Program-made: the position numbers and the translations under genes
Notes under the pieces: model-generated
What the model was told of the DNA's origin: nothing
Databases searched by the model: none
What the model saw: only the letters and a program-made list of their open reading frames with translations
IMG/VR virus record: IMGVR_UViG_3300030376_002811
Span: 5,183-69,182 of that record
Source of the DNA: a virus
Lineage: Duplodnaviria; Caudoviricetes
Direction: 5' to 3' (one strand)
Length of the DNA: 64,000 nucleotides
In this document: piece after piece, positions 1,366-51,601 of the stretch
Position numbering within the stretch: the stretch's first letter is position 1
Layout of the letters: every line of letters starts with the position of its first letter

Positions 1366-3017
1366 TAGTATCTAAATTTAATTGTTATGTCTCCAAATAT
1401 AGTGCCAGACCAAGCGGTATTTTTTCTTATTACTGGTAATAACTGGGAGCCAGCCGCAAGCGCGTAACCAGTAGTATCGGTGGCTGTATGTAGGTAATTA
1501 GCACTAGCGTTTCCTGTTATAGAATATTGTTTTAATAAATTAGTTGTATTGTCAGACGATCCGCTACCAGGTACAATTTCCCAAAGCTCAAAGACGTAAT
1601 CATCACCACTACCACCACCAGTATCTGTAAAGTTGTACATAACTGTGTGTATACTACAAGCTGTTATAGCTTGATAATGGCTCCACTTCGAGCTATTTTT
1701 ATTAACTACACCACCACCATCTGAATAAGCTGTAGCGCCAATATTAAAGTTGTAGTGACCGCCATAACTCATGTATTGATTAGCGCTGGCAGCTGACATA
1801 AACAAGTTTATATGTAGATAATCAAAGTGATGATTAACCTCTCCTAAATCTACATCTTCGTCAGGAACTGTTATTGTTCTATCACCTGTTGGATTTGTTA
1901 TACTAAAAGTTGTTTCGTGCACGTCTGGAACTGACCCTTCAAATATAAGGTTACCTTGTAAAAGAGTATCTCCATCAGCTCTAAAGCTAGCTATCACATT
2001 AGTTCCTCTAAGTGCAGTTGAACTACTAGCGTTTGTTTCTCCAGCTTGTATTATCACGCCACCACCAGCACCACTACCAGTTGCTCTACCACCAAACAAC
2101 TGTAAATTACCTCCATTTTTATCAGTACCAGTAGCATCGCCACCTCTTACATATAAATCTCCGCCAAATTCATCAGTGTGCCTTAATCTTCTTATAGTAG
2201 CAGCCCCTTCGTCATCAGCTCCAATATCAAGTATTTCGCCATCATAAGATAACGTTGATTCAGCTTGAATCGCAGATGTACCATTACCTGTTAGTATAGA
2301 GTTTGATGTTAAGGATGTAGCCCCTGTACCACCGCTGCCGACAGCTAATAACGAAGATAAACCTGCAGCTGTACCTGTTGTGTTTTGATTTAATGTAGGT
2401 ATGTTAGCCGCATTTATTGTAGCTGTCCCACTTATGTCTGTGTCCCAACGATAATGCTCTTCTGCTACAAAGTTTAATAACGAGTCATGATCTACTTCAC
2501 TGGCATCAACCGCGACCGTAAATGTACCACCTTGAGCTTGAGAGGTATCTATACCAGTTCCTCCAGCTAAAACCCAACTTACAGAACCTGAGGTAACATT
2601 GGTTACATTACTATCATCTGTCGCTAGTCTAATAGAAGATATAGTTCCTGTATTAGTAGTATAACCAGCTCCATTGGCTATGTACTGATTGTCTAAAGCC
2701 CCACCGTTACCAGTGTACGTAGAGAGAGCTGTATTTTCAACGTTGCCTAAATCTACGTCTGACTTAGTTGTGTTTGAATTAAGTAGTGTAGATATACTAT
2801 TAAGACCTGTACCACCGTTGGCAACAGGTAAAATGCCAGTAACCTCACTAGTTAAATCTACAGAGCTTCCAACTTCTGCAGCTTTTACTATTTTATTGTT
2901 TGAGTCTAAGCCTAGGTTACCACCACTCGCTATAGTTCCAGCAGCTATATCTTCTAAGTAGACGTCATTTTTAAATCTAGCTACTAAGTTTTGTATGAAC
3001 GCACCTATAAACTTCAT
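1365..3017 (-). CDS. Tail fibre-like protein, 550 aa
   Basis: G/T/S/N-rich, with fibre-type motifs ILPVANGGTG and LAVGSGGTGATSLT and a glycine-rich GGDLYVRGG/GGNLQLFGG segment. Confidence 0.65.
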   Translation of the reverse strand: MKFIGAFIQNLVARFKNDVYLEDIAAGTIASGGNLGLDSNNKIVKAAEVGSSVDLTSEVTGILPVANGGTGLNSISTLLNSNTTKSDVDLGNVENTALSTYTGNGGALDNQYIANGAGYTTNTGTISSIRLATDDSNVTNVTSGSVSWVLAGGTGIDTSQAQGGTFTVAVDASEVDHDSLLNFVAEEHYRWDTDISGTATINAANIPTLNQNTTGTAAGLSSLLAVGSGGTGATSLTSNSILTGNGTSAIQAESTLSYDGEILDIGADDEGAATIRRLRHTDEFGGDLYVRGGDATGTDKNGGNLQLFGGRATGSGAGGGVIIQAGETNASSSTALRGTNVIASFRADGDTLLQGNLIFEGSVPDVHETTFSITNPTGDRTITVPDEDVDLGEVNHHFDYLHINLFMSAASANQYMSYGGHYNFNIGATAYSDGGGVVNKNSSKWSHYQAITACSIHTVMYNFTDTGGGSGDDYVFELWEIVPGSGSSDNTTNLLKQYSITGNASANYLHTATDTTGYALAAGSQLLPVIRKNTAWSGTIFGDITIKFRY

Positions 3018-4894
3018 TTTATAAGTTTTCGTTCTACAGTTCCATCGTTGTATCTAAAGAATAATACTGTGTTTTTAATTACTTTTGATGGTCTACCTAG
3101 TACATCAGTAATTGATATTAACTCTCTTTCTACTAGCCTTCTAGGCATAGGACCTGTCCAAGTGCCATCACAATAGTCGTATGTAAGCTGGCATATATCG
3201 TCCCATTCGTTTTCACAGCAATAGTTGTCTACATCAATAACCCACTCGTAACATTCATCGTTTAACCAATAAGGATTTCCTGGACCAGTAATACAGTTAG
3301 CAGCATAGAGACAAGATAAAGAGTCGTCAACGTTAGCAAATGAATCGTAGTTATATGCTGATTGATCCATGCAGCCCTCAACAACCTCAATACATGAGCC
3401 GTTATCCGTGTTAGCCAATGAGTCAAAATTAATAGCGGTACTATCCGTACACCCATACAAATAAGAAATACAACTAAAATCCTCCGTGTTTGCTTCTGGG
3501 TTATAATTAAGCATAGAAGGATCTGTGCAACCAAATATGTAAGGTATACAAGAGTTATTATCACTATTAGCTAATGGGTTATAATTAAACATTGTTGAGT
3601 CTGTACAACCAAATACAAAAGGAATACAGCTGCCATCATCTGTGTTTGCGTTGGAATCATAGTTATACATTGTAGCATCAGTACAACCGTAATAAAGTGG
3701 TATACAACTACCGTCGTCAACGTTGGCATTAGGATTGTAGTTAAATGCCAACTGATTCATACAACCCTCTATTACAGATATACAAGATCCCTGTAGTTCT
3801 GTGTTTGCTAGTGGATCATAGTTTAAAGCTGTAGAGTCCATACAGCCTAAAACTATCAAAGTCTGACAGCTACCATCGTCAAAGTCAGCTGCTAAGTTAT
3901 ATTCTAAATATATAGGGTTTGTGCAGCCAGCTAAATAATAGCACGTGGTATCATCTGTGTTAGCTAAACTATCATAATTTAAAGCTAGAGTATCTGTACA
4001 GCCATAAATTCTTTCAATACAATCATCTCCACAATAAGGCATGCCTTCTACTATTATGAAAGGTACTAGTGGACTAGCGAAGCCGCCGGGCGCATCAATA
4101 GCCACGTGCTCTTCTGAGTACACACTATAACCACATTGCACTGACGTAAACTGCGACTGCTGTGTTATATTAAACTTAACACTAATAGGTTCTAGTATGC
4201 TTAATTCAAATGTAAACGTAGTATCAAATCCATCATCAAGAGTAAATACACCTAAGAAGTTGTTACCTTGAAATACCTGTAGATACGCTCCAGCCCAACC
4301 ATTGCCAGCTAAGTCTGTTAACTCTAACGTGTGAGTGCAACTGTCTACTAATATGTCTGTATTAGCAGAGTCTACATAATTATAAGCTAGTGAGTCGGTG
4401 CATCCAAAGACTTTAGGGGTTAAACACATACCTGTGTCTAATGTTGCTATTGGTAAAAACTCTACAAAGCTATTATCCATGCAACCATAAATAGGTGGTG
4501 GTGGAGCGCAGTCATCTACTGTAAAACCATGGTAAGCAGCAAAGCCAAAATTAGCTGAATCTATTTCAACTATTGTGTCGTTGCATCTTACTAGGTAGTA
4601 CGAGCCATCTTGTCCGCCCCATAAACTACCTTGCATACCATCTCCATATCCATCGCTCACTACAAATTCGTAATCACCATTAGGCACACAAAGCTGAGTT
4701 ACTTGAGGTGAATAGTCTACTATATTATCATAAGGGCCTCCAGTAACAACAGTATCTAGGTTGCTATCTAGTATAAGCCAAGACGTCTCCTCTGGATATT
4801 GATCTGGGTTTATTATAATGTCTAAATAAGTGCCGTTAGGGCACTGTGCAAACGCTATATTAACGCAAAATATTAGTGTGATTAAATGTTTCAT
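3014..4894 (-). CDS. Exported Cys-rich repeat protein with a T9SS-like C-terminal sorting domain, 626 aa
   Basis: Signal peptide MKHLITLIFCVNIAFA, a DGYGDG domain, about ten GC(T/M)DxxAxNY(D/N)xxANxDDGSC repeats, and C-terminus LISITDVLGRPSKVIKNTVLFFRYNDGTVERKLIK. Confidence 0.7.
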   Translation of the reverse strand: MKHLITLIFCVNIAFAQCPNGTYLDIIINPDQYPEETSWLILDSNLDTVVTGGPYDNIVDYSPQVTQLCVPNGDYEFVVSDGYGDGMQGSLWGGQDGSYYLVRCNDTIVEIDSANFGFAAYHGFTVDDCAPPPPIYGCMDNSFVEFLPIATLDTGMCLTPKVFGCTDSLAYNYVDSANTDILVDSCTHTLELTDLAGNGWAGAYLQVFQGNNFLGVFTLDDGFDTTFTFELSILEPISVKFNITQQSQFTSVQCGYSVYSEEHVAIDAPGGFASPLVPFIIVEGMPYCGDDCIERIYGCTDTLALNYDSLANTDDTTCYYLAGCTNPIYLEYNLAADFDDGSCQTLIVLGCMDSTALNYDPLANTELQGSCISVIEGCMNQLAFNYNPNANVDDGSCIPLYYGCTDATMYNYDSNANTDDGSCIPFVFGCTDSTMFNYNPLANSDNNSCIPYIFGCTDPSMLNYNPEANTEDFSCISYLYGCTDSTAINFDSLANTDNGSCIEVVEGCMDQSAYNYDSFANVDDSLSCLYAANCITGPGNPYWLNDECYEWVIDVDNYCCENEWDDICQLTYDYCDGTWTGPMPRRLVERELISITDVLGRPSKVIKNTVLFFRYNDGTVERKLIK

Positions 4895-6165: not shown

Positions 6166-7224
6166 TTAAAATATTATGTAGTTAATACCAAATTTAAAAT
6201 CGTACCAAGTTCTATTCCAGTACTTGTTATATTTACCCTCTACGAAAGCTCCTAGGTTTTTATTGATTTTCCAGCCGCAAATTAATCCGCCTGAATAATC
6301 ATACCATTGTCCACCTACAAAGTTATGATAAGAGTACGTAGACTTCATTTCGTAGTGGTAAGGCATTAAGTTTGCCCAAGCATGTAGCCATGATTTCTTT
6401 GAATAAGTATAGTAATCAAATCCAAGAACTATAGAGTGGTTCCACTCTTCTTTTAGTGCGTCTCTTTGCTCTTCCACATAAGTAGCTAGTATATTTGGTA
6501 TAATTACAGATTCCCAGACATCTTTACTTGTCGCTACTAAGTTTCCATTAGGATCAAAATATTCCCCTTCATATACATTTACATTGTAGCCTTGCTGTAG
6601 TGCTAAATAAGTATAATGTATGTCACCTGTTTCCAATAACCACTCATCTAAAGGATCAAAACCGTAGGGCTCCGCTAACCTAGTAACTCCTCCTACGTTA
6701 AAAGAAAGTTTGTCGTTTAATTTGTATCTAAATCTTTGTGACGCTTCATAGTATTCTACGTCCGCAAAACCATCCACTAGATACTCTACTTTAGTTAACC
6801 ACATTGGCCTAACATATCTCAAAAAGTGATGTTGATCTAAGTACTCTATACCTTCCTGTCTTTTTAAATCTACTTCAAACAAAAACTCTAGACCGTTCAT
6901 TTTACCAAGCGTCGCCGCATCAGACCAAGAGTCTTCAGTTCCATCATAGAAAGTATTAGCTCTGTTTTCATAACCAAATCTAGCTATTTTACGTACTCCA
7001 AAAGCCACATTGTAATCGTATGGCGTTTTAACTGTCGATGTTTGTAAGCCATCTGTAACAGAAAAAGTTTCTATATCTGATATAGATGTTCCGCCGTTTA
7101 CAGCCGCGTAGAAAGTAGAAAACTTAAAAGCTTTCTTTAATACTTGTGAGCAACACTCTTTAGGAGTTGCGCAAGAAGCTATTATAAATGTTAGTATTAT
7201 TAATAGTTTTTTACTGATGTGCAT
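6166..7224 (-). CDS. Putative outer-membrane beta-barrel protein, 352 aa
   Basis: N-terminal signal/lipobox-like LTFIIASC, alternating aromatic/hydrophobic beta-strands, and a BAM-type terminal strand YDFKFGINYIIF ending in Phe. Confidence 0.65.
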   Translation of the reverse strand: MHISKKLLIILTFIIASCATPKECCSQVLKKAFKFSTFYAAVNGGTSISDIETFSVTDGLQTSTVKTPYDYNVAFGVRKIARFGYENRANTFYDGTEDSWSDAATLGKMNGLEFLFEVDLKRQEGIEYLDQHHFLRYVRPMWLTKVEYLVDGFADVEYYEASQRFRYKLNDKLSFNVGGVTRLAEPYGFDPLDEWLLETGDIHYTYLALQQGYNVNVYEGEYFDPNGNLVATSKDVWESVIIPNILATYVEEQRDALKEEWNHSIVLGFDYYTYSKKSWLHAWANLMPYHYEMKSTYSYHNFVGGQWYDYSGGLICGWKINKNLGAFVEGKYNKYWNRTWYDFKFGINYIIF

Positions 7225-10200
7225 AGCATTTACCGTTTTTATTTTCTGTTAAGTTTTTACATTGTGGGCCTTTACCCTTTCTGGTTTTAGCGGTACAGCG
7301 AGTCATAGCTGCTTCTTTCTTTTTTCTTTCTTCTTCAGCTTTTCTTACTTCTTCTGCTCTTTTTCTTTTCTTATCTTCTTTTTTAGCATCTCTTATTCTT
7401 TTACCAGATTCTAAAAGATCTTGATTTTTAACACCAACATCCCAAGTGTTCCAACCCATCATCATAGCCACACGTTGCCACGCTTCGTTATTTTGGTTTA
7501 AAGCTTCTTTAATGTTTCTAACTTTATTAACTGCTCTATCCATTGGAACGTTTGTAATAGCAGAGACTGTATTACCTACAGTTTGCCACATTGGATTATC
7601 AATATCAAGCTTGTCCATCTCGTACATCTCTTCTTTATTAAATTTGTACGTTGTTAAACCAGAGTATAACTTTCTAGCCTTAGATCCAACAGGTGGCGAT
7701 AGGTTTAACATTTCTACTAAAACTCTACCTTGATCCATTTGGCCCCCACGTTTATCTTGCTCTATAAATTTAATTATCATGTTTTTAAACGTAGCTGCAA
7801 TAGCTCCGTAAACACCTGTACCTCTCAAGAAACTATCAACAACACTGTTAGCCATTCTAGCTTTAGCCTTATCTTCTGCTTCCTCATCTTCATCGTACAT
7901 GAATTTAAACATAGCTGATTGTAGACTAGAGAATATAATATTTTGAGCAGCGCCGTAGTATATTATTCTTGATATATGCTGTTTAGCATCGCCTCTACCG
8001 TTTATTAAGTCTAACGCAGCTTTTTTAGTTAACCTAGCGTACTGCATTGGAGTGTTTTGGAAAGCTAGTATAAATCTACCTAAAGCAGAGGCTTGCTGTT
8101 GTGATATTAAATCAGGTCTTGATGACTGCTGAGTTTCTTCTGCTATTTCTTGAAAGTCGATCATAGCTTGTGCTTCTGCATCTGCTTTTGACATACCGTC
8201 TTTCGTGTACGCTTTAACTTGATTTCTGTAGAAACTAGCACCACCAGCTGCTATAGCAAAACTATCCGCTATTTGTGTTGGTAAAAAACCTATTTTTAAT
8301 AGATACTGTAGCGCCGCTTTAGGATTACCTCCTGACGCTTCGACTGCCGCAGCTATTTCACTTTGATTTATATCTGATTTTAAACCAGCTCGTCTTTGCT
8401 TTAACATGTCAGAGTTAAATAACATTGAAAAGTCAGACCAATATTGTTTTTGATTAGCAAAAGCTTTAGCAGCTGCAAATACATTATTATTACCAAAGTT
8501 AATAAAGTTAACCGTAGACAGTGTTTGTAGCGCGGCTGATCTAGCGTTAAAGAACATAATAGCACCAACTGAATTGTTGATCCAGTTAGCAAACGAATTT
8601 ACCAATCTGTTATCGCCAAAGGTTCTATTAGTACCATTTTCCATACGCCACAACATATCTGTCAAAGCCTCTCTAAATCTAGTGCCGTATATAGCTTCTA
8701 TTTTATTCATATTCGGTCCAACAAGTTTTTTACCTTGCCAATCTCCAAATATTTGTGATCTTTTTTGTTTGAAGGGTTCTAAGTATTTTTCTCTACCAAC
8801 CTCTTGTGTTAGCTTGTTTAGGTCAGATCCTATAGTTTCTGTCACCCAAAACTCTCCAGGAGCAAGGTAACCATCGGGCTGCTTGGTTATCAAGCTTAAA
8901 TCATTCGCGTAAGCCACAACATCACCTTCTTTACCCAAAGCAGCTAATACTTTATTTTTATCTGTAGGCGATAATCCAGGTATATCAAAACCTGCTCTAT
9001 CCCATAAAGCAATTCTAACACCCTGATCGTAAGTAAACTCTGTTCCAGGTATTTTCTTTCTTAGCTTTTTAATAACTGGCTTATGCTGCTTTTTAATAGT
9101 TTTGTAATCTCTGTTTATAGATTGCTGCGCCGCGTCGATCTGTCTTTGTGCTTTAGCGTACGGATCAATTAACTCTTGTTTGAAAAAGCTAAATTGTGCT
9201 TCACCTTGTTTTCCTTTACCTAAAAAGTTATATAATAAACCTTTAAAATCTTCTGCTGATGGAGGTATAAAAAACCTAAATCTTCCTTTGTCTTTACCTC
9301 TTTGCCTTGCTTTTGCTTCAGAAAACTCTTTAAAACTTTCTACACCCGTAACTTCTTCTAGTATGTTGTTAAAATCTAAACTAGGGTTAGCACTACTCTC
9401 GCTGTTTCTTACTAACACAGCTTTACCTTTGTTATCAAACTGATCAAACACATGTTGTACAGCGTCTACGTTTGGCTTAGCGTCATCTACAAAGTACATG
9501 TCGTTATAGCCTTCAGCGTACTTATCTACAAACCACTGAGCTTTAGCATCACCCCTACTATCACCTAAACCTGTTATGTTTTTCAACGGCAGGCTTATAC
9601 CTTGAGAATCAAGCCAAGCTTGTATCGCTGGTGCCGCCTCAGCTGGTCTTGCTGTTAGTATAAATACGTTATCTGTTCCGTACTTTGCTATTTGATTTCT
9701 AAACTTTTGCATTAACGGTCCTTCTACACCGCCTCTAACATTTATAAAATCGTCAAAGTTGAAGTCAAAGCCTTGGGCAGCGTACTGTGGCCCAAGTATA
9801 GGCCAGTCACCAGAGCTAATAGTAACAGTCTGATCTCCTTTGGTTGCTATAATAGTATTTTCTCCTTTATCAATTAACGTTTCGTCAAAATCAAATACTG
9901 AAGCACCTACAGATTCACCTTCTGAAAGTTTTACGTTTTCCTTAGCTTTATCCATGTTCTGAAGATTAAGCCTAACCTCTTGCCCTAACCTCTGTGTTAA
10001 CTCAGTGGCTTTTTGGTTTATCAAACTTACAACGTCGCCACCCTGTTTTACGTCTACATAGTTTTTTAACTCAGGAGATATAGCTAAATTTCTTGAATAA
10101 CCTATTTGACTTGTAGAACCTAAACGTGAATCTTGAGTGTCAGAATCTATTTTTGGCCCTAGACTTTGATCAAAGTTTATTAGCTCTAATTGAGTGTCAG

Positions 10201-13200
10201 CGTAGAATTCATTTATTATTTGCTGTTGATCTTCTGGTCTAGCCTCCGCTAATCTAGTAGCTAAGTCTAATGTATTCTTTAATAGTTTAGACTGTAATGG
10301 AGCGCTAGGATCTATATGCTCTCCTTTGTTAGAAAGTAGTTCGCCAATCTTCTTTTCATCTCCCTTAGCCATTTCAAATGCTCTCTGAAAATCTGGGTGA
10401 TTTCTATTTACTTGGTTTGCTACAAGCTCACCTTTTACTTTAGAAGTTTTAGAGTTTGTAGGTTTTCCGTTAGGTGTAACGTATGGAGCTTGTGATCCGT
10501 CCATTACTTTAATCATACCTAAATCAGTAAGACCTCTAAAGCCGTTCACGTTGTTTGTAGCTGTTTGTTGAAATACAGCAAGACCAAGAGATAAGCTTTT
10601 ATCTTTAGCAACTTCTTTACCCATTTCCCCAAGCATCCACGCTAAAGCTTTCTTATTATTAGCGTTAGCGGCATCCATTCTAGGTTGTAACTTTTCTAGT
10701 TTTTTCTTCTTTTCGTCAGCTGTAATATCTTCGTTTAAGATGCTTTGTACATCATTCATTAAACCTTTCTTAGAGTTCATTATCTCTATACCATTGGGAT
10801 CAAATGGTAGGTTTAACTCACCGCCTTTTTGATTAGCTTTATTTTGAAGTTTTTGTCTTGTAGGGAAGTACTTGCCTTGACTACCGTCTTGCTTTGTCTC
10901 TGCGCCATCAAGCATTCTATGATTGTTTAATCCAAAGAATTCATAACCTAATACATCTAAAAGCTTAGGTGGGCAAACATCAATCATTTTTAAGACAAGA
11001 TTGTTGTATGACTCTTTATGGCTCGCTGGCATTTTACTATGAGCGTTCTCTTTATAGTCGCTCATTTGATCAGCATATCTATCGCCCCAGTCCATTTCTT
11101 TAACCGTATCCATGAACCTCTTTGTTTTACCAAACATGTCATATAGTCCTAAGGTTTTAAACGCGGCGACAGCTTCTGGGTTGCGACCTTCAAGCATTTG
11201 ATCGAGCTCTGTAGTACCTCCTGTTTTTTTATTGTATTTAGAAGCGATGTCCTTAAGCATGTCGTTTACTTCAAACATAATAGCATCACCAACTATATTT
11301 TGGCTAGACTCGCCTGTTTCGCTAAACTTAGCGGTACCTCTTTCGATTTGCCTACCTATTTCTTCAACGTAATTTTCAGCTAATACTCTATCGAATAACT
11401 CTTGTCTACCTTTAAACGTTTCAGATATTGGACCTTCATTGTTTAGATCGTTTTTAAAGACCTCTAGTCCATATTCTTGACCTAACATCATAGATAGCTT
11501 ATCCAGTCCGTTACGTCTAATATCTGTCATTGTCTCTCCTTTAGCAAAGTTGCTAAGCATTTCCGCGTTTGTAACCTTAGAGTCTGCAGCTGGATGTCTT
11601 CTCATGACTTGCGGCCCAGAAGTATTACCTCTATATGGGCCAACGTCGTTAGCATTCCATCTATCTATTTTTTGACCTTGCCAATCACTAGTCCAATTAG
11701 GCATGAACTTAGTTGTTCCATCTGCGTTTTTAACTCTTGTTCCACCAACAGACTTCTGAACAGCTGATGGCATGTTTTTAGCTAGCCAACTTGTAGGAGC
11801 TGATCTTAATATAGACCCTTTGTTTTTTGGATCTGTTAAGAAAGCTTCAACATCTGCTTTTGTTTTACCTATAGTATTTAGTATTGCTTTATGTATAGGT
11901 CCATTTTTAGTGCCAAAAACTTTCTTAAGCGCAGATATAAAAGGTGTTGTAAACTTATTTTTTGAAACCTGCTTGTCTATAGCTGGTAGTTCTACACCAA
12001 CAGCTCTGTTGACAGTTTCGTTTATTACATTGCTATTCTCTTCAGATATATCTAAGTTTTCTGTTAACGGTAAATCTGGGTTTGTTATTTTTTCAGACTC
12101 CTGCTCAAAAGCGTCTTCAGCTGTAAAGTCAGATTCTATACCCTTTGCATCATCTATGTTTACATCTATACCTCTACCACCGTATTCTGTTGTAGATTCA
12201 ACACCAAGTTCTCTAGCTATATCTTTTGATCTTTCATTAAGTAGGAAAGAAACATATTTATCTAAAGACATTTTGCTTGGATTGTAACCTTTGCTCATTA
12301 TTTCCCAAGCCTTTGTTACTACAGATTCCTTAAATTCATTTCTTGATATTCCTTTTCTAGCATCTGGTGCTATAGGGTCAAATAGTTTTTTAGTTATACT
12401 CTCTACTAAACCACCTACGTTTTGCGCAAGCTCAGACTCTAATATGGTGCCGTCAACTGGTGACCCATCTGGTTTTCGCATTAACATATCTGTAGCTAAA
12501 CTAGCCGCGTCTGCCGACGTAGCATCTGTTCCAAAGTTTTGATCTAATCTTTCTTGCAAGTTGCTAGAAGCTCTATAACCTTTTGAATCTACATTTTCTT
12601 GATTCTTTTTATTATCTAGCTTTCTTTTTTGTAACTCACCAACCTCACCGTTTTCAAAACCAGTCAAGTAACTACCCATCCAAGCCGCAGCGTCATTAGC
12701 ATTGTTTATATTAAACTGCCCACCAACAACACCTCTCATTTTGTTTAAAAATCCAGTCTGTGATTGGTTTTGTATTTTTTGTTTATGTCTAGCGTTAGAT
12801 TCAAACTGTAGCACGTCCTGAGCCCTCTTAGTATATTCATCTTTAGCTTCACTTGTTTGATCTTCAAAGTTTTTGCTTTCATCATATCTAGCATCACCGC
12901 TTAACTTGTTATTATGTTTTATAACTTGATCGTGAATGCTAGGCATTTCCGCAGATATGTAATCATGTAAGTTATTAGCATAACCATCTCGCTCTTCAGC
13001 GTTCATAGCCGTGTCATCTATAAAGTGACCTATCTCATGAGACATTGCTGTACCAGCTAATAAATCGCCACTTTCTATAGCAGCTTCTGTAGCCTCTTTC
13101 TCTGTTGTTATATATTGATTACCTACAATAGCCGCTTTAACCTTACCGTCTTTTACACCCTTTATAAGTTGATCAGCTTTCTCTTGAGATATATTACCTT

Positions 13201-16200
13201 GCTCAACTTGTTGTTGTATCTTTAGCTCTAGGTCTTGTGATCCATTAGCCTCTTCAACAGTTAAATCTGAAAGTCTTTTATCTTGAAGTATAGCTTTTGT
13301 GCTTACGTCAGCTTTTGTTTTTAAAACTAAAGCTTCTGCTTTTCTAGACTGAACAAAGTTAGCAACCATGTTAAAAAACGAATCTTCTTTTGCTTTTAAA
13401 TCGCTAGGAACTCTTTTTCTATTATTCTGCTCAAGCCACTCTGCTTTTGTTATACCATTACCATCTTTATCTTTGTATACTTCCCTTTCTACGTCTTCAA
13501 CAATTTTCTTATCTTTCTTAGCTTCTCTAACCGCTTGAGCTTGGTCTGAAGCTTGCATAGCATCAAAAACTTGTCTTGCCTGTTCTTTAGCTGATAGGTC
13601 TTTAAAACCAGGATCTTTTTTAGATAAAGCCTCTGCCTTAGCTAAGCCCTTAGCTCCAAACGTGTTCCATATAAAACCTCCACTAACATTTCCGTCTTTA
13701 TCGACATCGTATTTTGTAGCGTCTTTTGGATTTCCATAATCTACGTTGTCTCTAACATCAATAGCTTTTCTAGTTAAATCTAAGTTTGTTTTAAAGTTTG
13801 CTCTTTCCTCACTGTCCATTCCGTCCATGTGATCGTTTAGCTTTTGCTCTATTTCAGCGTCGCTATCACCAACGTCAACACCTGCTTGCTGATATAAATC
13901 CTGCAGATTATTTTGGTTCATTATAATATCTTGAGCAGACTCAGCTCCAAACTGATCTAATAAAGCTAGAGCATTAACCGCTTGCTCTGAGCTTAGGTTA
14001 GCCATCTTTTCAATTTGCCCTAAGTAGTTGTTTTGTAGCACCTTCATTTTACGATCGTACTTTGGATCGCTAGGATCTAGCGCTTTCATTGCTTCATCGA
14101 TTCTAAATAGCTCTGGTTTTACTTCATTAAACCAAGTGCTTCTATCACTTGAACTACCTAAATGATTTCTCACTTGATTGACAGCATTACCAAATGCAGA
14201 TGTTGGAGTAGCTGAAACAACAGTACTAAAAATAGTTTCTTTAGCCTCTGATCCAAGTTCGTTTAAATCAACGTCATCTCCAAGAATAATTTTATCACCA
14301 AGTGTGTCTCCACCTAGAACTATTAATTCTTCCACTATTTCACCACCTATCATCTTACCTGTTCCTATCGTGAAATCAAAAAGTCTTCGATAGCCACTTT
14401 TCAACATCTCACTACCAGCGCCAGACGTTTGTCCACCTAGTAAACCTTTAAGTTTTAAAGCATTTGTAGCCTCACCAAGAAATAGCATAGTACCACCTTC
14501 AACAATACCACTTATACCAGACGCGCTATTTATTTGCAATCGTGACAAACCACCTAATGATATTGTTTTATTTAAGTTTATCATGCTATCCCTGTAGGAT
14601 TCGTAGTCTGTTATCAAGCCTTTGTCAAAAGCTTCTTTTAACTCTATTTTTGTTTTTTCCGCCTTTTCCGCTTGTTCGTTTCTAGTAATTAGCTCAACCT
14701 TTTTTCCACCAAAAGAGCTAAGTCCAAAAGCACTAGCTGTACCCCAGGTTGAAGCTGAGATACCAAGGAACGTACTACCTGGTAAAAGGTAACTTGAGCT
14801 TATAGCTATAACAGTGTTTGCTCCTTGCTGAGCCATAGTTCTTTTCACGTTGAACGCTTGATCGCCAAGCTCCGAAGCTTGATCTACAGTTAGCTTTGTC
14901 ATCGTATATGCCTTACCAGCATTCTTGCTTTGCGCTCTTCTTTGAAACTCTTCACTACCAAAACCAGCTGGTATATTATAACCAAAAGATCTAAAACCAT
15001 CAAAAAAGTCTTGCCAAAGTATTTTAGTCTTGTCGTAGTCTTTGCTAACCAAAGCATTTAGTTTCTCTTCTTCACCAAGAATGTCAGCGTGAGCTTTAAT
15101 CCAAGAATCATTTTTAGTATTATACTCGCCCCAAGCTGTGTCAAAACCGTTGTTTATTACTTTGCTTTGACTCATCAAGTCTTCTAGCTTCTTTTGATAT
15201 TTTAATCTAACATTTTCATCTGGATGCTGAACAACAACAGTAGCATCATCTCCTTCACCAATGACTTTAACACCACAACCTGCGTTTTTCATCATGGTGT
15301 TTATGTTGTCAAATCTTTTATTTAGAACAGAAATATCTTGCTTATAACTTCTAATTAAATCTCCACCAATTGTGTCAAGATCTTGTCTTTCTCTTCTTAG
15401 AGTATTTACTGTTTTATTTGTTATATCGCTAGACGAAAGCTTTACATCTATGTTTTTCCCTAAGTATACCTCAGCTGCTAAACTACCGTGACTATCGATT
15501 AATTGTTTTTTCTTGTTACTTAGCCTTGTTTGTTCTAAAGCTTTTTTGCTATCAAGATAATTTACCAACAAATTGTAGTCTTGTTCTGGTAGTTTATCTT
15601 TTAAGTCTTTTAAAGTGTTAAATCTTTCTTCTTGCCAATCCTCTTTCTGTATAATTTTGGCTTCGCCAAACATATCACTTTCATCATCTTTTTCATTCTT
15701 GACTTCTAGTATAGGCTTTTCTAAGTGATTTTTTATAATTGCCTTACTTTTTCTAGTCATACCGCTATAGTCAGGCATGTTGTTTAAATCAAACATCATG
15801 TTATCTATAACATTACCGTCTTTAAAGTAAGCTTTGTAAACCTCTTCTTCATTAAGCTCTTCAGCTTTTATTTTCTTTTTAGCACTTATTTCGTTTATTA
15901 AGTTTTTTCTTTGATCAAGATTGTATTTGTCAAGTTTGTCTTTATCTTCGTTATCTAAAGATTTGTAAATGAAAGCGCTTGCTTCGTTGGCGTCTTTCAC
16001 ACCATGAGTTCCGTATGGAGAGTTAATAAGGTAGCCGACTGCACCGCCTTTTGTAATACTATAGTCCAATCCAGCTTCTTTAAATACTTTGTTAGCAGCG
16101 TCTAAACCATCGTTGCTTAGCATTTTAGAGTTAGATACTCTTCTTTCACTTAATATGCTAGTTACAGAGTATTTTATATCTCCGCTTTTTACTAACCTGT

Positions 16201-17440
16201 CATAGTCATCTACAAACCTTTGAAACTCGTTTATACCATTTTCTTCGTAGTTACTATATAAGTCTACTTGGTAGGTTGTTCCATCAGGGCCTGTTACTGT
16301 GACAGCATTGCCAATCCCTCTCTCCTCAACAGTTACATTTTCAAAGTTATTTTCGATCATACCTCTGACCAACTCCTCATCTTTTTTTACCCACGTTTTA
16401 ACGTTTCTATAGTCAATATCATCGTCAACGCCAAGACCTTTTACTTCAGCCACATCTTCGTCACTAAGACCACCTGTCCAAGAGTTTTCTTTTCTAAATT
16501 GTTTAAGGTCTTGCGTTAAATCTAAAGATCTTTGCTGCATATCTACGTCACTTATATTTAAGTAATCGTTAAGATCTACCTCTGAAACTTCTTCACCGTT
16601 AGAAGCTCTCTCTCCAACACTTCTAACTGAATTAATTTTATCGACAAACTCTTGTGGCATTTCTCGACCCGGAAAGTCTGCTAAGTTACTTGGATCATAT
16701 TGTAATCCAAAGTCAAGTTGATTCGGATCTAATGGTTGTTTATACCATTTTCCGTCCATATATATTATTCTATGGTCACCTCTTATATAGACGTTATCAC
16801 CATCTCCCGCCTTAGTAAGATTCATGTCTTCGATAGTAGATGGATTTTCTTGTCTATACTTTCTATCTTCTTCCCTTTCTTTTAGCTCAGTTTCATATTG
16901 CTTAGCTTTAAAGTAAGCTTCTTTGTCAAAAGCCTCTTCGCCATAATGCCCTAACTCTTGGCCTATACTAATGTAAGCGGGGTTTGTTATATTTCCTTCT
17001 TCGTTAGCGTTAGCGTCTACTTCTATCCAGTCATCAGATCCAGTTCTTTTAGTATAGTATAATGGAAAACCACTTTCGTCAAGCTCGTACTTGTAGTCGT
17101 ATCCATCTCCACCGCTATGATTTTGGCCTGGTTGAAACTTAGGAGGTTGTGATTCCGAAGAACCATCGTCCGATGTTGATTCCGTACCTGTAGATACTGT
17201 TTGAGGCTCTGCAGGAGCATCGGTCGCCTGAGAGCCTTTTTCCTTTTTTGAGGCTTGAAGTTCTTGCCAAATATCTTCCGGTGTTTTCCAATTACCATCA
17301 GCATTTTTATGCATGTGGTTTGGATCAGAAGTATCGATTTGCTGCTGCTTATAATGAGCAACTATTTTATCTAGATTTTCTTGCGGCTGACCGTCGTCTG
17401 CCATTTGCTTTAGTACGGCGCCTAACTGTTCTTTATTCAT
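7211..17440 (-). CDS. Giant internal virion/ejection polyvalent protein, 3409 aa
   Basis: Follows tail and smaller ejection-type genes. Contains HEIGH (aa 1468), a sigma-region-2-like segment, a HAD domain (DFDET...ILTAR...K...FVDD) and a terminal C-C-C-H Zn motif. Confidence 0.7.
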   Translation of the reverse strand: MNKEQLGAVLKQMADDGQPQENLDKIVAHYKQQQIDTSDPNHMHKNADGNWKTPEDIWQELQASKKEKGSQATDAPAEPQTVSTGTESTSDDGSSESQPPKFQPGQNHSGGDGYDYKYELDESGFPLYYTKRTGSDDWIEVDANANEEGNITNPAYISIGQELGHYGEEAFDKEAYFKAKQYETELKEREEDRKYRQENPSTIEDMNLTKAGDGDNVYIRGDHRIIYMDGKWYKQPLDPNQLDFGLQYDPSNLADFPGREMPQEFVDKINSVRSVGERASNGEEVSEVDLNDYLNISDVDMQQRSLDLTQDLKQFRKENSWTGGLSDEDVAEVKGLGVDDDIDYRNVKTWVKKDEELVRGMIENNFENVTVEERGIGNAVTVTGPDGTTYQVDLYSNYEENGINEFQRFVDDYDRLVKSGDIKYSVTSILSERRVSNSKMLSNDGLDAANKVFKEAGLDYSITKGGAVGYLINSPYGTHGVKDANEASAFIYKSLDNEDKDKLDKYNLDQRKNLINEISAKKKIKAEELNEEEVYKAYFKDGNVIDNMMFDLNNMPDYSGMTRKSKAIIKNHLEKPILEVKNEKDDESDMFGEAKIIQKEDWQEERFNTLKDLKDKLPEQDYNLLVNYLDSKKALEQTRLSNKKKQLIDSHGSLAAEVYLGKNIDVKLSSSDITNKTVNTLRRERQDLDTIGGDLIRSYKQDISVLNKRFDNINTMMKNAGCGVKVIGEGDDATVVVQHPDENVRLKYQKKLEDLMSQSKVINNGFDTAWGEYNTKNDSWIKAHADILGEEEKLNALVSKDYDKTKILWQDFFDGFRSFGYNIPAGFGSEEFQRRAQSKNAGKAYTMTKLTVDQASELGDQAFNVKRTMAQQGANTVIAISSSYLLPGSTFLGISASTWGTASAFGLSSFGGKKVELITRNEQAEKAEKTKIELKEAFDKGLITDYESYRDSMINLNKTISLGGLSRLQINSASGISGIVEGGTMLFLGEATNALKLKGLLGGQTSGAGSEMLKSGYRRLFDFTIGTGKMIGGEIVEELIVLGGDTLGDKIILGDDVDLNELGSEAKETIFSTVVSATPTSAFGNAVNQVRNHLGSSSDRSTWFNEVKPELFRIDEAMKALDPSDPKYDRKMKVLQNNYLGQIEKMANLSSEQAVNALALLDQFGAESAQDIIMNQNNLQDLYQQAGVDVGDSDAEIEQKLNDHMDGMDSEERANFKTNLDLTRKAIDVRDNVDYGNPKDATKYDVDKDGNVSGGFIWNTFGAKGLAKAEALSKKDPGFKDLSAKEQARQVFDAMQASDQAQAVREAKKDKKIVEDVEREVYKDKDGNGITKAEWLEQNNRKRVPSDLKAKEDSFFNMVANFVQSRKAEALVLKTKADVSTKAILQDKRLSDLTVEEANGSQDLELKIQQQVEQGNISQEKADQLIKGVKDGKVKAAIVGNQYITTEKEATEAAIESGDLLAGTAMSHEIGHFIDDTAMNAEERDGYANNLHDYISAEMPSIHDQVIKHNNKLSGDARYDESKNFEDQTSEAKDEYTKRAQDVLQFESNARHKQKIQNQSQTGFLNKMRGVVGGQFNINNANDAAAWMGSYLTGFENGEVGELQKRKLDNKKNQENVDSKGYRASSNLQERLDQNFGTDATSADAASLATDMLMRKPDGSPVDGTILESELAQNVGGLVESITKKLFDPIAPDARKGISRNEFKESVVTKAWEIMSKGYNPSKMSLDKYVSFLLNERSKDIARELGVESTTEYGGRGIDVNIDDAKGIESDFTAEDAFEQESEKITNPDLPLTENLDISEENSNVINETVNRAVGVELPAIDKQVSKNKFTTPFISALKKVFGTKNGPIHKAILNTIGKTKADVEAFLTDPKNKGSILRSAPTSWLAKNMPSAVQKSVGGTRVKNADGTTKFMPNWTSDWQGQKIDRWNANDVGPYRGNTSGPQVMRRHPAADSKVTNAEMLSNFAKGETMTDIRRNGLDKLSMMLGQEYGLEVFKNDLNNEGPISETFKGRQELFDRVLAENYVEEIGRQIERGTAKFSETGESSQNIVGDAIMFEVNDMLKDIASKYNKKTGGTTELDQMLEGRNPEAVAAFKTLGLYDMFGKTKRFMDTVKEMDWGDRYADQMSDYKENAHSKMPASHKESYNNLVLKMIDVCPPKLLDVLGYEFFGLNNHRMLDGAETKQDGSQGKYFPTRQKLQNKANQKGGELNLPFDPNGIEIMNSKKGLMNDVQSILNEDITADEKKKKLEKLQPRMDAANANNKKALAWMLGEMGKEVAKDKSLSLGLAVFQQTATNNVNGFRGLTDLGMIKVMDGSQAPYVTPNGKPTNSKTSKVKGELVANQVNRNHPDFQRAFEMAKGDEKKIGELLSNKGEHIDPSAPLQSKLLKNTLDLATRLAEARPEDQQQIINEFYADTQLELINFDQSLGPKIDSDTQDSRLGSTSQIGYSRNLAISPELKNYVDVKQGGDVVSLINQKATELTQRLGQEVRLNLQNMDKAKENVKLSEGESVGASVFDFDETLIDKGENTIIATKGDQTVTISSGDWPILGPQYAAQGFDFNFDDFINVRGGVEGPLMQKFRNQIAKYGTDNVFILTARPAEAAPAIQAWLDSQGISLPLKNITGLGDSRGDAKAQWFVDKYAEGYNDMYFVDDAKPNVDAVQHVFDQFDNKGKAVLVRNSESSANPSLDFNNILEEVTGVESFKEFSEAKARQRGKDKGRFRFFIPPSAEDFKGLLYNFLGKGKQGEAQFSFFKQELIDPYAKAQRQIDAAQQSINRDYKTIKKQHKPVIKKLRKKIPGTEFTYDQGVRIALWDRAGFDIPGLSPTDKNKVLAALGKEGDVVAYANDLSLITKQPDGYLAPGEFWVTETIGSDLNKLTQEVGREKYLEPFKQKRSQIFGDWQGKKLVGPNMNKIEAIYGTRFREALTDMLWRMENGTNRTFGDNRLVNSFANWINNSVGAIMFFNARSAALQTLSTVNFINFGNNNVFAAAKAFANQKQYWSDFSMLFNSDMLKQRRAGLKSDINQSEIAAAVEASGGNPKAALQYLLKIGFLPTQIADSFAIAAGGASFYRNQVKAYTKDGMSKADAEAQAMIDFQEIAEETQQSSRPDLISQQQASALGRFILAFQNTPMQYARLTKKAALDLINGRGDAKQHISRIIYYGAAQNIIFSSLQSAMFKFMYDEDEEAEDKAKARMANSVVDSFLRGTGVYGAIAATFKNMIIKFIEQDKRGGQMDQGRVLVEMLNLSPPVGSKARKLYSGLTTYKFNKEEMYEMDKLDIDNPMWQTVGNTVSAITNVPMDRAVNKVRNIKEALNQNNEAWQRVAMMMGWNTWDVGVKNQDLLESGKRIRDAKKEDKKRKRAEEVRKAEEERKKKEAAMTRCTAKTRKGKGPQCKNLTENKNGKCYAHQ

Positions 17441-18964: not shown

Positions 18965-19582
18965 TTAAACTACTCCACCAGTTACAGCCTTAGTTACACC
19001 GCCTGCTGCGCTACTTATACCTGACCACATTTTTGCATCAGCTCTACCCTCAGCGGCAGCGGCAGCGGCCATCTCAGCAGCCTCCATGTCCATCATTGTT
19101 CCAATTTTATTTTGCTCCATTTGTCTACTCATAATCTCACCTTCGCGCTCTTGAGCTTGTATTTGCGCGGAAGCTTTTCTTTCGGCCATTTGATTAGCTG
19201 TCTCCTGCTTGCCAATAGACACCGCTGCTTTTTGAGCGTCAAGAGAACCTTGGTTAGCTAGGGTTTGTGCTAATGCAGCTATACCAGATCCACCAGCAGC
19301 ACCTTTCATGTTAGCCATTATATTAGCTTGGTTTTGTTGTTGAGTCTGTCTAGTGAACTCTGCTTCTTGTTGATTTACAGTTAAGTCTTCCATTTTGTTT
19401 TCCATATTCTTAAATGGATTACTTGTGTCCATTTCTGAAAACTGCTTTTTTCTTAACTCCATCTGTGCTTTGGCAGCCTCCTTTTCAGCTCTCGCTTTCT
19501 TCTTTTGCTTACCGCCAGATATAGCTTTTGCCACACCTGCGCCAACTGTTACCGCCGCTGCACCTACTAATAAAAAACTCAT
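18965..19582 (-). CDS. Putative ejection/DNA pilot protein, 205 aa
   Basis: Gly/Ala-rich hydrophobic termini flanking a Gln/Met/Ala-rich coiled coil, as in podoviral pilot proteins. Confidence 0.55.
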   Translation of the reverse strand: MSFLLVGAAAVTVGAGVAKAISGGKQKKKARAEKEAAKAQMELRKKQFSEMDTSNPFKNMENKMEDLTVNQQEAEFTRQTQQQNQANIMANMKGAAGGSGIAALAQTLANQGSLDAQKAAVSIGKQETANQMAERKASAQIQAQEREGEIMSRQMEQNKIGTMMDMEAAEMAAAAAAEGRADAKMWSGISSAAGGVTKAVTGGVV

Positions 19583-19585: not shown

Positions 19586-20038
19586 TTATTTATTTTTAAT
19601 ATATTCTTCATAATCTTCAAAATCTTTAGCAACAATGTCTTTTTCTAATTGTTGTATGTCTTGTGTGTTTGTCGGGTTTTTGTGTATATTTACAAATATA
19701 CTTTCTTCGTTAGCATATATAACTCTCTTTGTGCCAGGCGTTGCCACCACATAGCAAGGTGCTATATATTCCTCTATATCATCTTCTGTAGCTACAGCTA
19801 TGTTACCCTTTAGTAAAAACCACACATGCAAGTGTTTATGTATAGCTCCTACAACACAAGAACCTTTTCTCATTGACATTTGTCTAACGTATACACCATC
19901 AGCAAACGTGTGTTTTAACGGAAACAACTCGGAGTCTTGATGTGTAACTATATTAACCTCATCAGCGTTAGCCATTAAGTTGTTTTGAAAGTTTAGTATT
20001 TCTTTTCTTTTTGTTTTACGAACCTCGTTTTTAGACAT
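19586..20038 (-). CDS. Cupin-like protein, 150 aa
   Basis: LKHTFADGVYVRQMSMRKGSCVVGAIHKHLHVWFLLKG...PGTKRVIY resembles the cupin-like ORFs common in phage tail modules. Confidence 0.6.
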   Translation of the reverse strand: MSKNEVRKTKRKEILNFQNNLMANADEVNIVTHQDSELFPLKHTFADGVYVRQMSMRKGSCVVGAIHKHLHVWFLLKGNIAVATEDDIEEYIAPCYVVATPGTKRVIYANEESIFVNIHKNPTNTQDIQQLEKDIVAKDFEDYEEYIKNK

Positions 20039-44246: not shown

Positions 44247-44504
44247 TTATTCCACTAAAACAACATCGTTTACGCGGATTACGTAATACAACTTATCATT
44301 CCATGTTATTCCATGGCCTGCGTGTTTATCATAGAATATAATATCTCCATCTTTTAATCCTTCAATAAGATTTCCAACGGATATAATTTTTCCTTTAAAA
44401 TATCTATTGTCCTCATCTAATTCCTCAGTGAAGACCATTCCACCTATTTCTTTTAGGCTTTCTTTTATTTCGTCTACAATTATATAGTTATTTACTGCTT
44501 TCAT
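44247..44504 (-). CDS. groES: Co-chaperonin GroES, 85 aa
   Basis: KAVNNYIIV...GGMVF...GKIISVG...LKDGDIIFYDKHAG...YYVIRVNDVV; overlaps the groEL start. Confidence 0.85.
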   Translation of the reverse strand: MKAVNNYIIVDEIKESLKEIGGMVFTEELDEDNRYFKGKIISVGNLIEGLKDGDIIFYDKHAGHGITWNDKLYYVIRVNDVVLVE

Positions 44505-46065
44505 CTGATCTCATATTTGAAATTACACATTCAGCAGAAACTACAGTTGTAGCGACAGATATTGCATTTTTTAAAGCTGACTTAGTTACAAGGACTGGAT
44601 CTATAATACCAGTTTTAACCATATCAACTTCTTTGCCAGTTGTAACATCAACACCAAATCCTTCTTTATAAATATCTTTTATTTCAAGATTTGCGTTATC
44701 CATTATAGTTGCAAAGGGTGATTTTATAGCTTCAAACAATATTTTTTCACCATCGTTTTCAGCTTTTAAGTTTATTGATGCATTTAGCAAAGCAATACCA
44801 CCGCCAGGTACAATACCTTCTTTTAGCGCTGCTTTTGTGGCGTGTATAGCATCTTCAACTCTATCTTTCTTTTCTTTTAATTCTACTTTTGAATCAGCAC
44901 CAACCTTCATAATAGCAACTGATCCACATAGCATAGCTAATCTTTCTTCTAGTTTCTTTTTAATAAAACCGTTTTTCTCTTTAGCTATTTTATTTTTTAC
45001 AAGCTTAACTCTATCTTTTAGCTCTTTTGTTTTTTCTTCACTATTAAGAGTTAACACTGTTTTGTCAGAGTACGTTATACTTGTTGAAACCTCACCAAGC
45101 TCTTCTGGTGTCATTAAATCTAAATCATCACCTAAAGACTCGTTGTAAACTTTTGCATTTACTAATAATGCTAAATCTTGTATAGTATCTGGTCTAGTAG
45201 GTCCAAAGCCTGGAGGATCGATAATATTTACACTAATATTACCTTTCATCTTATTCATGTATAAAGCACTCTGAACTTGTTGAGACACCTTAGATACTAT
45301 AAGTAAAGATCTTTTGTTTTTGATTACATACTCTAGTATGCTTTGTATTTTTCTAGTGCTAGGTATTTCCGATGCACTAACTAATACTAGCGGATCTTCT
45401 AATTCACAAACACCTTTATCTGTATCTGTTATAAAATGAGCAGATGTTATTCCACATGTATTAAGTTGTACTCCTTCTACTACATTTACGTAGGTTTCGT
45501 TCGTTTCAGACTCTTCCATCAGAACAACACCGTCTTTACCTACTTTTTCGTAAGCGGTGGCTATAATCTCTCCAAGAACTGCGTCGTTGTTACAACTAAT
45601 AGATCCCACGCTCTTAAGCATGTCTCCTTCAACTGCAATAGATATATTTTCAAGATACTTGTAGATTTTTTCCAGTCCTGAATAAATACCTGCTTTAATT
45701 TCTCTAACATTTTTATTGCTTGTTGTTTTGTATATGTACTGTATCAATGACTCAGCCAATACTGTAGCTGTAGTAGTTCCATCACCAGCCTCTCTTACTG
45801 TGTTTTGAGCGGCCTCTTTAATTAGTGTGGCACCCATGTTTTCAACCGGATCATACAAGACTACGCTTTCTGCAACGGTTACACCGTCTTTTGTGATTAC
45901 CGGTTTACCGAGCGCGTCTTCGTAAATTACACACTTACCGGAAGCTCCGAGTGTTGATTTTACTGCTTTTGCAAGTTTTTCGACGCCGCTCACAATTTTC
46001 TCTCTAGCTTCCGACGAAAAGTTTAAATCTTTTATCAGAAGCGAAGGATTGTTAAATTCGCTCAT
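44488..46065 (-). CDS. groEL: Chaperonin GroEL, 525 aa
   Basis: STLGASG, ITKDGVTVA, AGDGTTTATVLA, KDRVEDAIHATKAALKEGIVPGGG and GIIDPVLVT; no GGM tail. Confidence 0.95.
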   Translation of the reverse strand: MSEFNNPSLLIKDLNFSSEAREKIVSGVEKLAKAVKSTLGASGKCVIYEDALGKPVITKDGVTVAESVVLYDPVENMGATLIKEAAQNTVREAGDGTTTATVLAESLIQYIYKTTSNKNVREIKAGIYSGLEKIYKYLENISIAVEGDMLKSVGSISCNNDAVLGEIIATAYEKVGKDGVVLMEESETNETYVNVVEGVQLNTCGITSAHFITDTDKGVCELEDPLVLVSASEIPSTRKIQSILEYVIKNKRSLLIVSKVSQQVQSALYMNKMKGNISVNIIDPPGFGPTRPDTIQDLALLVNAKVYNESLGDDLDLMTPEELGEVSTSITYSDKTVLTLNSEEKTKELKDRVKLVKNKIAKEKNGFIKKKLEERLAMLCGSVAIMKVGADSKVELKEKKDRVEDAIHATKAALKEGIVPGGGIALLNASINLKAENDGEKILFEAIKSPFATIMDNANLEIKDIYKEGFGVDVTTGKEVDMVKTGIIDPVLVTKSALKNAISVATTVVSAECVISNMRSDESSK

Positions 46066-49295: not shown

Positions 49296-49356
49296 TCTTA
49301 TTTATATATATTATCATCTTTTTCTCGTTTTTACATTGCATTTCATTTACAACGCT

Positions 49357-49378
49357 AATACGACTTACAATTGATAAT
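49357..49378 (+). promoter_or_regulatory. Early promoter motif copy 1
   Basis: AATACGA-cttacaatt-GATAAT. Confidence 0.75.
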
Positions 49379-49387
49379 AAATACGTA

Positions 49388-49483
49388 ATGAGAAACAATA
49401 ATAATAAATACAACAAAAGAAATACATTGATACTTCAAATATCATTTATTACAATACAATTAACATTATTCTTCTTACTATAA
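49388..49483 (+). CDS. Small hydrophobic peptide, 31 aa
   Basis: MRNNNNKYNKRNTLILQISFITIQLTLFFLL starts 10 nt after promoter copy 1. Confidence 0.35.
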   Translation: MRNNNNKYNKRNTLILQISFITIQLTLFFLL

Positions 49484-51600: not shown

Positions 51601-51601
51601 T

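Follow-up and report, generated by a model that had tools for sequence, protein, structure and literature searches.

The 64-kb stretch of DNA analysed here (hereafter the window) belongs to the 69,182-bp IMG/VR virus record IMGVR_UViG_3300030376_002811 of a marine Flavobacteriia podovirus, whose structural gene block has as its final large gene a giant late open reading frame (ORF) of 3409 amino acids, P0001 (positions 7211-17440, minus strand, from the ORF list and its translation). We found that amino acids 1640-1750 of this protein (positions 12191-12523, minus strand) are very probably folded, as judged from structure prediction, into a four-helix domain resembling domain 2 of sigma-70 factors, and that this domain recurs, as part of a conserved cassette, in a large family of giant phage proteins. 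The model is best described as a highly diverged sigma domain 2-fold module that would comprise the region 1.2 helix and regions 2.1-2.4. Judged by the sequence features that define the sigma-70 family, the domain falls outside it; what it has is a sigma-2-like fold. A preceding inspection of the window by eye, referred to below as the original prediction, had singled out positions 12200-12440, which lie entirely within P0001, and had proposed that the virion may deliver a sigma-like domain that redirects host RNA polymerase to early promoters.

The AlphaFold2 model of amino acids 1640-2060, computed from a 47-row alignment, reached a mean predicted local distance difference test (pLDDT) value of 81.6, with 77-93 over model residues 1-100. 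The four helices of the domain span amino acids 1642-1654, 1670-1687, 1700-1718 and 1726-1744 (model residues 3-15, 31-48, 61-79 and 87-105), and the order 1.2, 2.1, 2.2 and 2.3/2.4 of the sigma-2 fold is present in the predicted domain. The segment of the original prediction, amino acids 1670-1743 (positions 12212-12433, minus strand), corresponds to the three C-terminal helices, and both of its peptides were exact matches, ELAQNVGGLVESITKKLF at window positions 12380-12433 and KAWEIMSKGYNPSKMSLDKYVSFLLNERSKDIAR at 12212-12313, both on the minus strand. In a structural search the model was superposed on sigma domain 2 structures over 65-86 residues at 2.1-3.6 Å; its four-helix arrangement matched sigma-2 far oftener than other helical families, and in a second look all 50 of the 50 top entries were sigma, with Z always below 8. 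Foldseek returned no match of the AlphaFold2 model to the PDB at E<=0.001; its weak rows include several sigma factors, among them the N-terminal domain of SigE (TM 0.63, 2.8 Å, 75 columns). Searches of the ESM atlas with amino acids 1640-1755 placed Sigma70_r2 in 20 of the 30 nearest named clusters and a viral ‘sigma factor’ in 9 more, at a score of 0.95, which is also reached by about one in 100 shuffled proteins. The sigma-2 fold, for which an AlphaFold model of the segment had been suggested as a check, is hence predicted both by AlphaFold2 with structural search and by protein-language-model search.

The predicted four-helix architecture is the same as that of sigma-70 domain 2 in Pseudomonas aeruginosa sigma28 (9wsm_F), Escherichia coli sigma70 (1sig) and Mycobacterium tuberculosis SigA (4x8k). 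On E. coli sigma70, model residues 30-106 aligned with residues 377-446, 31-108 with 378-447 and 12-107 with 375-446. In this register the ITKKL helix corresponds to region 2.1 (ISIAKKY) and the TR..Y...L...A......EY helix to region 2.2, whose end, F419-E420-Y421, is matched by the Y-N/D-P turn; L-D-K-Y/F-V-S coincides with the beginning of region 2.3. As in the FDP...F..W of sigma factors, a Y/F-D-P turn follows the second long helix and is succeeded by a helix start of the form Phi-x-x-aromatic-Phi. The same register had been drawn by eye in the original prediction, and from this agreement with the predicted superposition we infer that the resemblance is real at the level of fold, undetectable as it is at the level of sequence. 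Two statistically insignificant hhalign fragments also fell into the register of the structural superposition.

Sequence-level tests against sigma gave negative results throughout. BLASTP of the surrounding 251 amino acids against the phage’s own sigma (described below) yielded E values of 0.8-1.6, and no Pfam sigma family was matched at E<=10 by the segment, by the surrounding 251-amino acid piece, by 13 short homologues or by 32 domain slices. Over the six-frame translated genome, PF04542 Sigma70_r2 matched only the sigma gene at 59624-60379. The domain-family profile had no match at E<=10 among 177,635 PDB sequences. In hhalign, the domain family scored 8.9% and 1.7% when compared with the phage-sigma family and 0.3% with a bacterial set of 30 diverse sigma-2 regions drawn from five genomes, versus 97.7% (E 1.9e-12) for the phage sigma against the bacterial sigma-2 set as positive control in the same run; the domain next to the sigma-2-like one scored 0.07% against the bacterial set. 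Of the by-eye alignment of the segment with the phage’s own sigma, the exact peptides and the register therefore stand and the sequence similarity, which is not above chance, does not; homology to that sigma was undetectable by BLASTP and hhalign, and the suggested profile check against Sigma70_r2 came out negative.

Two incidental matches from these searches were discarded. RANxLAxxLGI of the family resembles SAxEIAxxLGI of sigma-4 in hhalign, and a helix-turn-helix was considered at this place; it was rejected because the probability was at most 9% and the model continues with a disordered linker in place of a recognition helix. A cysteine desulfurase match of the profile to PDB sequences was spurious and came from a single chimeric protein, the 300-amino acid metagenomic homologue P0170. 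In this protein a class-V aminotransferase N-terminus (Pfam 2e-62) is joined to the sigma-2-like domain, which is probably an assembly chimera.

P0001 has about 170 relatives of 1500-3600 amino acids in marine metagenomes. The family consensus of the sigma-2-like domain, from 32 clean slices, reads GGIVExITKRLYDPIPxxxxxGxTRxxYxxxLxxxAxxxxxxEYDPxKQxLDKFxSNRLNLRANxLAxxLGI. Conservation is strongest on the last helix, the structural equivalent of sigma regions 2.3/2.4, which in sigma factors read the -10 element with aromatic and basic residues, so that this would be the putative DNA-reading helix. R1737 is invariant there in all 32 sequences, with near-invariance of Q, D, F/Y, S, R and L; the conserved F/Y at amino acid 1729 lies on the same helix as the invariant R1737, with a register good to within one residue. 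The W-W pair of region 2.3 is absent from the domain family. P0001 and its closest relative (L007) have a divergent last helix, SFLLNERSKDIA versus the consensus SNRLNLRANSLA.

The domain does not occur alone in the viral loci covered here. It is followed by an acidic disordered linker at amino acids 1751-1786 (positions 12083-12190, minus strand), with 11 D/E versus 3 K/R in 36 residues and pLDDT below 50 at model residues 113-136, and then always by a conserved compact alpha/beta domain at amino acids 1787-2035 (positions 11336-12082, minus strand), which is modelled confidently and has no fold match. This cassette of sigma-2-like domain, acidic linker and alpha/beta domain of about 250 amino acids was found in 100-120 of 171 homologues, and homologue coverage steps up from about 70 to 100-120 of 171 at amino acid ~1650, some 20 residues upstream of the segment. 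An ESM atlas search with the remainder of the cassette yielded no usable match. In 36 of 36 IMG/VR loci, recovered with an alignment of the domain, it is located inside a giant ORF (1200-3400 amino acids, lengths being bounded by contig ends), and it was never a free gene there.

Two widely shared modules of the homologues map on P0001, at amino acids ~1650-2050 and ~2680-3350. At amino acids 1468-1472 (positions 13025-13039, minus strand), some 170 residues before the sigma-2-like domain, P0001 carries the zincin-type HExxH motif HEIGH. All of 16 full-length homologues share H1468, E1469, H1472 and D1475, which are nearly invariant in 47, and HExxH also precedes the sigma-2-like domain in short homologues. 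This region has no match to a Pfam peptidase family and is a putative zincin by its motif. A region resembling HAD phosphatases, recognised by regular expression, follows at amino acids ~2510-2670 (positions 9431-9913, minus strand), with DFDET at 2517-2521; its motif set is complete (amino acids 2517-2653), and D2517, D2519, T2521, K2633 and D2652/D2653 are invariant in 16 homologues. Some relatives of P0001 carry Zeta_toxin/AAA_33 kinase domains in place of HAD. The C-terminal module, module B (amino acids ~2680-3350; positions 7391-9403, minus strand), shows the highest conservation within the family and is present in about 110-118 of 171 homologues; it had no match in Pfam, PHROG, NCBIfam or PDB sequences. 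Dozens of its residues are invariant, e.g. in NSVGAIMFFN.RSA.LQ and QQSSRPD.ISQQQAS.LGR. At the very C-terminus of the giant protein (amino acids 3381-3409; positions 7214-7300, minus strand) there is a lysine-rich Cys-X10-Cys-X10-Cys-X2-His motif (CTAKTRKGKGPQCKNLTENKNGKCYAH), kept in close homologues with the consensus CSAKTRKGKGPRCKNRTENKSGKCYAHQ, which may be a zinc knuckle, or a tail for packaging or nucleic-acid binding.

The setting of P0001 is that of a structural operon. The minus-strand arm of the window encodes the large terminase, the portal, several PHROG ‘virion structural proteins’, GroEL and a structural protein of 2392 amino acids, a neighbour of the giant ORF with a weak match to the C-terminal part of the crAss muzzle. 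By portal similarity the nearest cultured phages are the Flavobacterium elemo phages, Cellulophaga phi38:1 (Pervagoviridae) and Tenacibaculum and Maribacter phages, all of which have Flavobacteriia as hosts. The gene order is common to the window, elemoD and phi38:1 and ends in a very large ‘structural protein’ gene, encoding 3757 amino acids in Flavobacterium elemoD (gp72) and 1691 in Cellulophaga phi38:1 (gp101); P0001 has the same gene position. From this synteny, together with the domain architecture, we consider it likely that the capsid carries the giant protein and that it leaves the capsid with the DNA on ejection. An ORF of 205 amino acids (positions 18965-19582, minus strand), which lies two genes upstream of P0001, is a candidate small internal virion protein, with a weak match to Pfam T7_gp14 (E 0.013) and a BLASTP E value of 0.001 to phi38:1 gp99, annotated as ‘virion structural protein’.

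On the opposite strand, the window contains a canonical sigma-70-family gene of 251 amino acids (positions 59624-60379, plus strand), identified by Pfam (Sigma70_r2 3.8e-5, r4 6e-6), TIGR02937 (55.9 bits versus a cut-off of 42.9) and hhalign. The peptides that the original prediction attributed to the phage’s own sigma are located in this ORF, a genuine sigma-70-family protein, which has the region 2.2 motif DLIQEGNxGL and a weak NCBIfam match to MzaA, a defence-associated sigma. The family of this sigma is very abundant, with at least 8000 database proteins at E<=0.001, most of the listed matches being 61-67% identical. Copies were also seen on short contigs in metagenome-assembled genomes of unrelated phyla (Aliivibrio, Clostridium, Arcobacter, archaea), which looks like phage contamination of bins and not like host range.

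The promoter-like array described in the original prediction is real: nine exact copies of ATACGA-N9-GATAAT are present on the plus strand, versus 0.38 expected. All nine are contained in TACAAA-N4-ATACGA-N9-GATAAT sites (positions 49358-56135, plus strand), and the extended consensus, TACAAA-N4-ATACGA-N9-GATAATA (window 49328-56141, plus strand), is longer than the motif given earlier. As had been claimed, the array is unlike the Bacteroidota consensus, full TTTG...TAnnTTTG promoters being few, scattered and in no case upstream of the genes of the array. The long spacing of TACAAA-N19-GATAAT is typical of Bacteroidota promoters, and a sigma with domains 2 and 4 could read such a site. The motif was found in all five near-complete related genomes with the giant protein (63-71 kb, G001-G005), in 6-12 copies on one strand and with the variants ATACAA in G005 and GATTAT in G002, and each of the five has exactly one canonical sigma gene of about 250 amino acids. 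The sigma gene and the array share a strand in each of the six genomes, the gene following a few kb past the last motif copy; in the five related genomes the distance is 0.3-2.7 kb by the coordinates reported, in G002 across the record ends. ElemoD and phi38:1 were devoid of the motif, of the sigma-2-like domain and of this sigma. Since motif, domain and canonical sigma travel together, the array is not assignable to the giant protein over the ordinary sigma.

Two further ideas on the array were set aside. ATACGAC recalls the T7 promoter, but the 69-kb record yielded no single-subunit polymerase, its largest early-strand ORFs being a primase/helicase of 572 amino acids and an ORF of 617 amino acids. 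Nor do P0001 and L007, with their divergent last helix, have a different promoter motif, the motif being the same for either helix type.

The mechanism that we prefer, with somewhat less than even confidence and on the strength of the predicted model, is that the domain acts on host RNA polymerase. The giant protein would most likely be packaged and then ejected with the DNA, in the way of the giants at the same position in related podoviruses. Once inside the cell, the cassette could be released by the adjacent putative HExxH protease; it would dock on host core RNA polymerase in the manner of sigma domain 2, and the docked cassette would alter transcription by the host enzyme before any phage gene is expressed. 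The absence of an evident virion RNA polymerase motif, noted in the original prediction, was confirmed: neither giant ORF contains DxDGD, there was no polymerase match in PHROG, Pfam or NCBIfam, and the whole-family giant-protein profile had no match among PDB sequences; the polymerase-fold check by structure search covers the folded amino acids 1640-2060, outside module B. With polymerase motifs and fold undetected, the host enzyme would need to be borrowed if the giant protein acts on transcription.

Several forms of such action can be envisaged, each of them unlikely when taken singly. By analogy with T4 gp55, the domain might serve as a specificity factor devoid of sigma-4, or it might be a competitor displacing the host primary sigma, both of which we rate as improbable. 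A little less probable still is that the injected sigma-2 module, with the partner domain replacing sigma-4, would form a phage-specific holoenzyme for TACAAA-N4-ATACGA-N9-GATAAT, the canonical sigma acting later; we give similarly little credence to a direct responsibility of the giant protein for the ATACGA-N9-GATAAT promoters.

An action on host RNA polymerase is partly supported by the position of the gene at the end of the structural operon, by the HExxH/HAD/Zeta-toxin architecture, by the promoter array, which does not resemble Bacteroidota promoters, by the lack of an RNA polymerase signature in the giant protein, by the conservation of the cassette and of the last helix of the domain and by the agreement of two fold methods. 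Other observations weigh against it. Sequence homology to sigma was undetected by every hidden Markov model or profile-profile test. The motif DLxQEGNxGL, which in sigma70 carries the contacts of region 2.2 with the beta-prime clamp helices, is missing from the family consensus, the equivalent helix reading TRxxYxxxLxxxAxxxxxxEYDP. The alpha/beta domain of 250 amino acids showed no enrichment of sigma-3, sigma-4 or helix-turn-helix in the structural search. P0001 had no detectable similarity to phi38:1 gp101, and its central part and module B had no match to GenBank phages by blastn or tblastn, as a Foldseek comparison with BFVD also returned nothing at E<=0.001; packaging into the virion is deduced from gene position, by synteny. 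The array co-occurs equally with the canonical sigma, in six of six genomes, and this sigma could by itself account for the array; moreover, the same ATACGA-N9-GATAAT is found in phages with a divergent or a consensus last helix, and helix and promoter thus do not co-vary, P0001 and L007 sharing their motif with the consensus-helix phages. Of the delivered sigma-like domain proposed originally, the predicted sigma-2 fold has consequently held up and the assignment of the early-promoter array to it has not. A complex prediction of the sigma-2-like domain with residues 200-400 of Flavobacterium johnsoniae beta-prime (score 0.06, mark 0.32) weighs neither way.

The same observations may be read differently. 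The sigma-2-like fold could be employed away from RNA polymerase, binding DNA or a component of the virion or ejectosome in packaging, in the holding of genome ends or in DNA translocation. This would suit the lack of conservation of the residues by which sigma contacts beta-prime, a conserved surface with many R, N, S and Q residues, of the kind that nucleic-acid binders in general display, the confinement of the domain to giant ORFs of the structural block and its fixed partner that has no transcription-related fold match; giant ejection proteins of podoviruses are built of loosely connected domains (PMC13434306). We nevertheless consider such a role rather unlikely, because the four-helix arrangement resembles sigma-2 much more frequently than other helical families, the language-model search likewise indicates sigma, and sigma is the sole DNA-binding fold family enriched among the matches. 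The resemblance itself might be an artefact, a generic helical linker for which AlphaFold2 and the language model drift to a common and heavily represented fold. Every sequence-based test being negative, Z staying under 8, Foldseek finding nothing at E<=0.001 and the atlas score being attainable by shuffled proteins at about 1/100 are all in line with this explanation. We hold it to be very improbable: two methods with different inputs concur, pLDDT of 77-93 was obtained from 47 alignment rows, the confidently modelled neighbouring domain, serving as control, shows no drift to sigma, the top entries of the second structural look were sigma without exception, and the insignificant hhalign fragments share the register of the superposition.

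A sigma mimic can also be imagined, for which the sigma-like domain of PhyR in the PhyR/NepR system is the model. The domain would keep the fold, would not bind RNA polymerase and would titrate a host protein that binds sigma-2, such as an anti-sigma or a defence regulator, at the time of DNA entry. A sigma-like fold devoid of the hallmark sigma sequence is what such a mimic would display. The occurrence of MzaA among the weak NCBIfam matches of the phage’s own sigma indicates that sigma-dependent defence systems exist, and counter-defence effectors are typical of polyvalent proteins (PMC5512222). On the other hand, there is no candidate partner, PhyR-type mimics retain sigma-4 beside sigma-2, the latter being the only one of the two seen in P0001, and the idea is a pure analogy with PhyR/NepR; we therefore regard it as quite unlikely.

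Compared with known systems, the domain differs from sigma-70 factors, which are free proteins of 20-70 kDa, in being embedded at residue ~1640 of a 3409-amino acid protein of the structural block, in lacking profile similarity and DLxQEGNxGL, and in that sigma-3 and sigma-4 were not found in the cassette. T4 gp55 (PDB 7d7d chain F), a late sigma, is essentially one sigma-2-like domain; it is, however, synthesised as a free protein once infection is under way and depends on gp33 and the sliding clamp, for which no counterpart was identified here, whereas the present domain resides in a presumed virion protein. T4 Alt, packaged in the virion and ejected, is a precedent for the retargeting of host RNA polymerase by such a protein as infection begins (PMC5512222); unlike the predicted sigma-like binding module of P0001, Alt is an enzyme, an ADP-ribosyltransferase. 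N4 gp50 (about 3500 amino acids) and gp66 of the crAss-like phi14:2 are giant proteins of podovirus structural regions that are ejected for early transcription (PMC13434306). Unlike in these two, polymerase motifs or a polymerase fold were undetected in P0001.

The giant protein belongs to an already known class, and it is the domain type that is new. Polyvalent proteins were described by Iyer, Burroughs, Anand, de Souza and Aravind in 2017 as giant multi-domain proteins of phages and conjugative elements (PMC5512222), and the survey proposes zincin-mediated processing and proteins codelivered with DNA that ‘jump-start transcription or replication’ (PMC5512222). P0001 agrees with this description in combining HExxH, the HAD DxDxT set, the sigma-2-like domain and two conserved modules; it departs from the catalogued polyvalent proteins in that no Pfam polyvalent-associated domain was detected in it. 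A sigma-2-like module is not among the catalogued polyvalent domains, as the word ‘sigma’ is absent from the survey (PMC5512222). Our full-text literature search, of incomplete coverage, found no description of a virion-delivered sigma-like domain.

The action on host RNA polymerase proposed here is a testable function and a potentially important one. Phage transcription is documented to start either with the host holoenzyme on early promoters or with a virion polymerase, as in N4, crAss-like and phiKZ-like phages. A sigma-like module in an ejected giant protein would constitute a third route beside host sigma and virion RNA polymerase, and a cheaper option that confers promoter specificity without a polymerase. 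The giant-protein family is a large one, since clustering at 50% still leaves over 100 representatives. Its phages are those of marine Flavobacteriia, which play a major part in degrading the material of algal blooms, and homologues of the companion phage sigma gene number in the thousands in metagenomes. If an effect on transcription is not borne out, the repertoire of polyvalent and ejected proteins still gains a sigma-2-like fold and a confidently predicted domain that has no fold match, and the cassette, at about 400 amino acids, is a defined and expressible object for biochemistry.

Some minor observations concern the remainder of the structural arm. An ORF of 150 amino acids between the muzzle-like and giant genes (positions 19586-20038, minus strand) matches PHROG short tail fibre / tail fibre adhesin (1e-29), which is an unexpected location for such a gene should the block code for internal proteins. 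The GroEL-type chaperonin is full-length (positions 44488-46065, minus strand; PHROG 5725, 4e-134), and GroES is encoded beside the terminase in the relatives elemoD and phi38:1.

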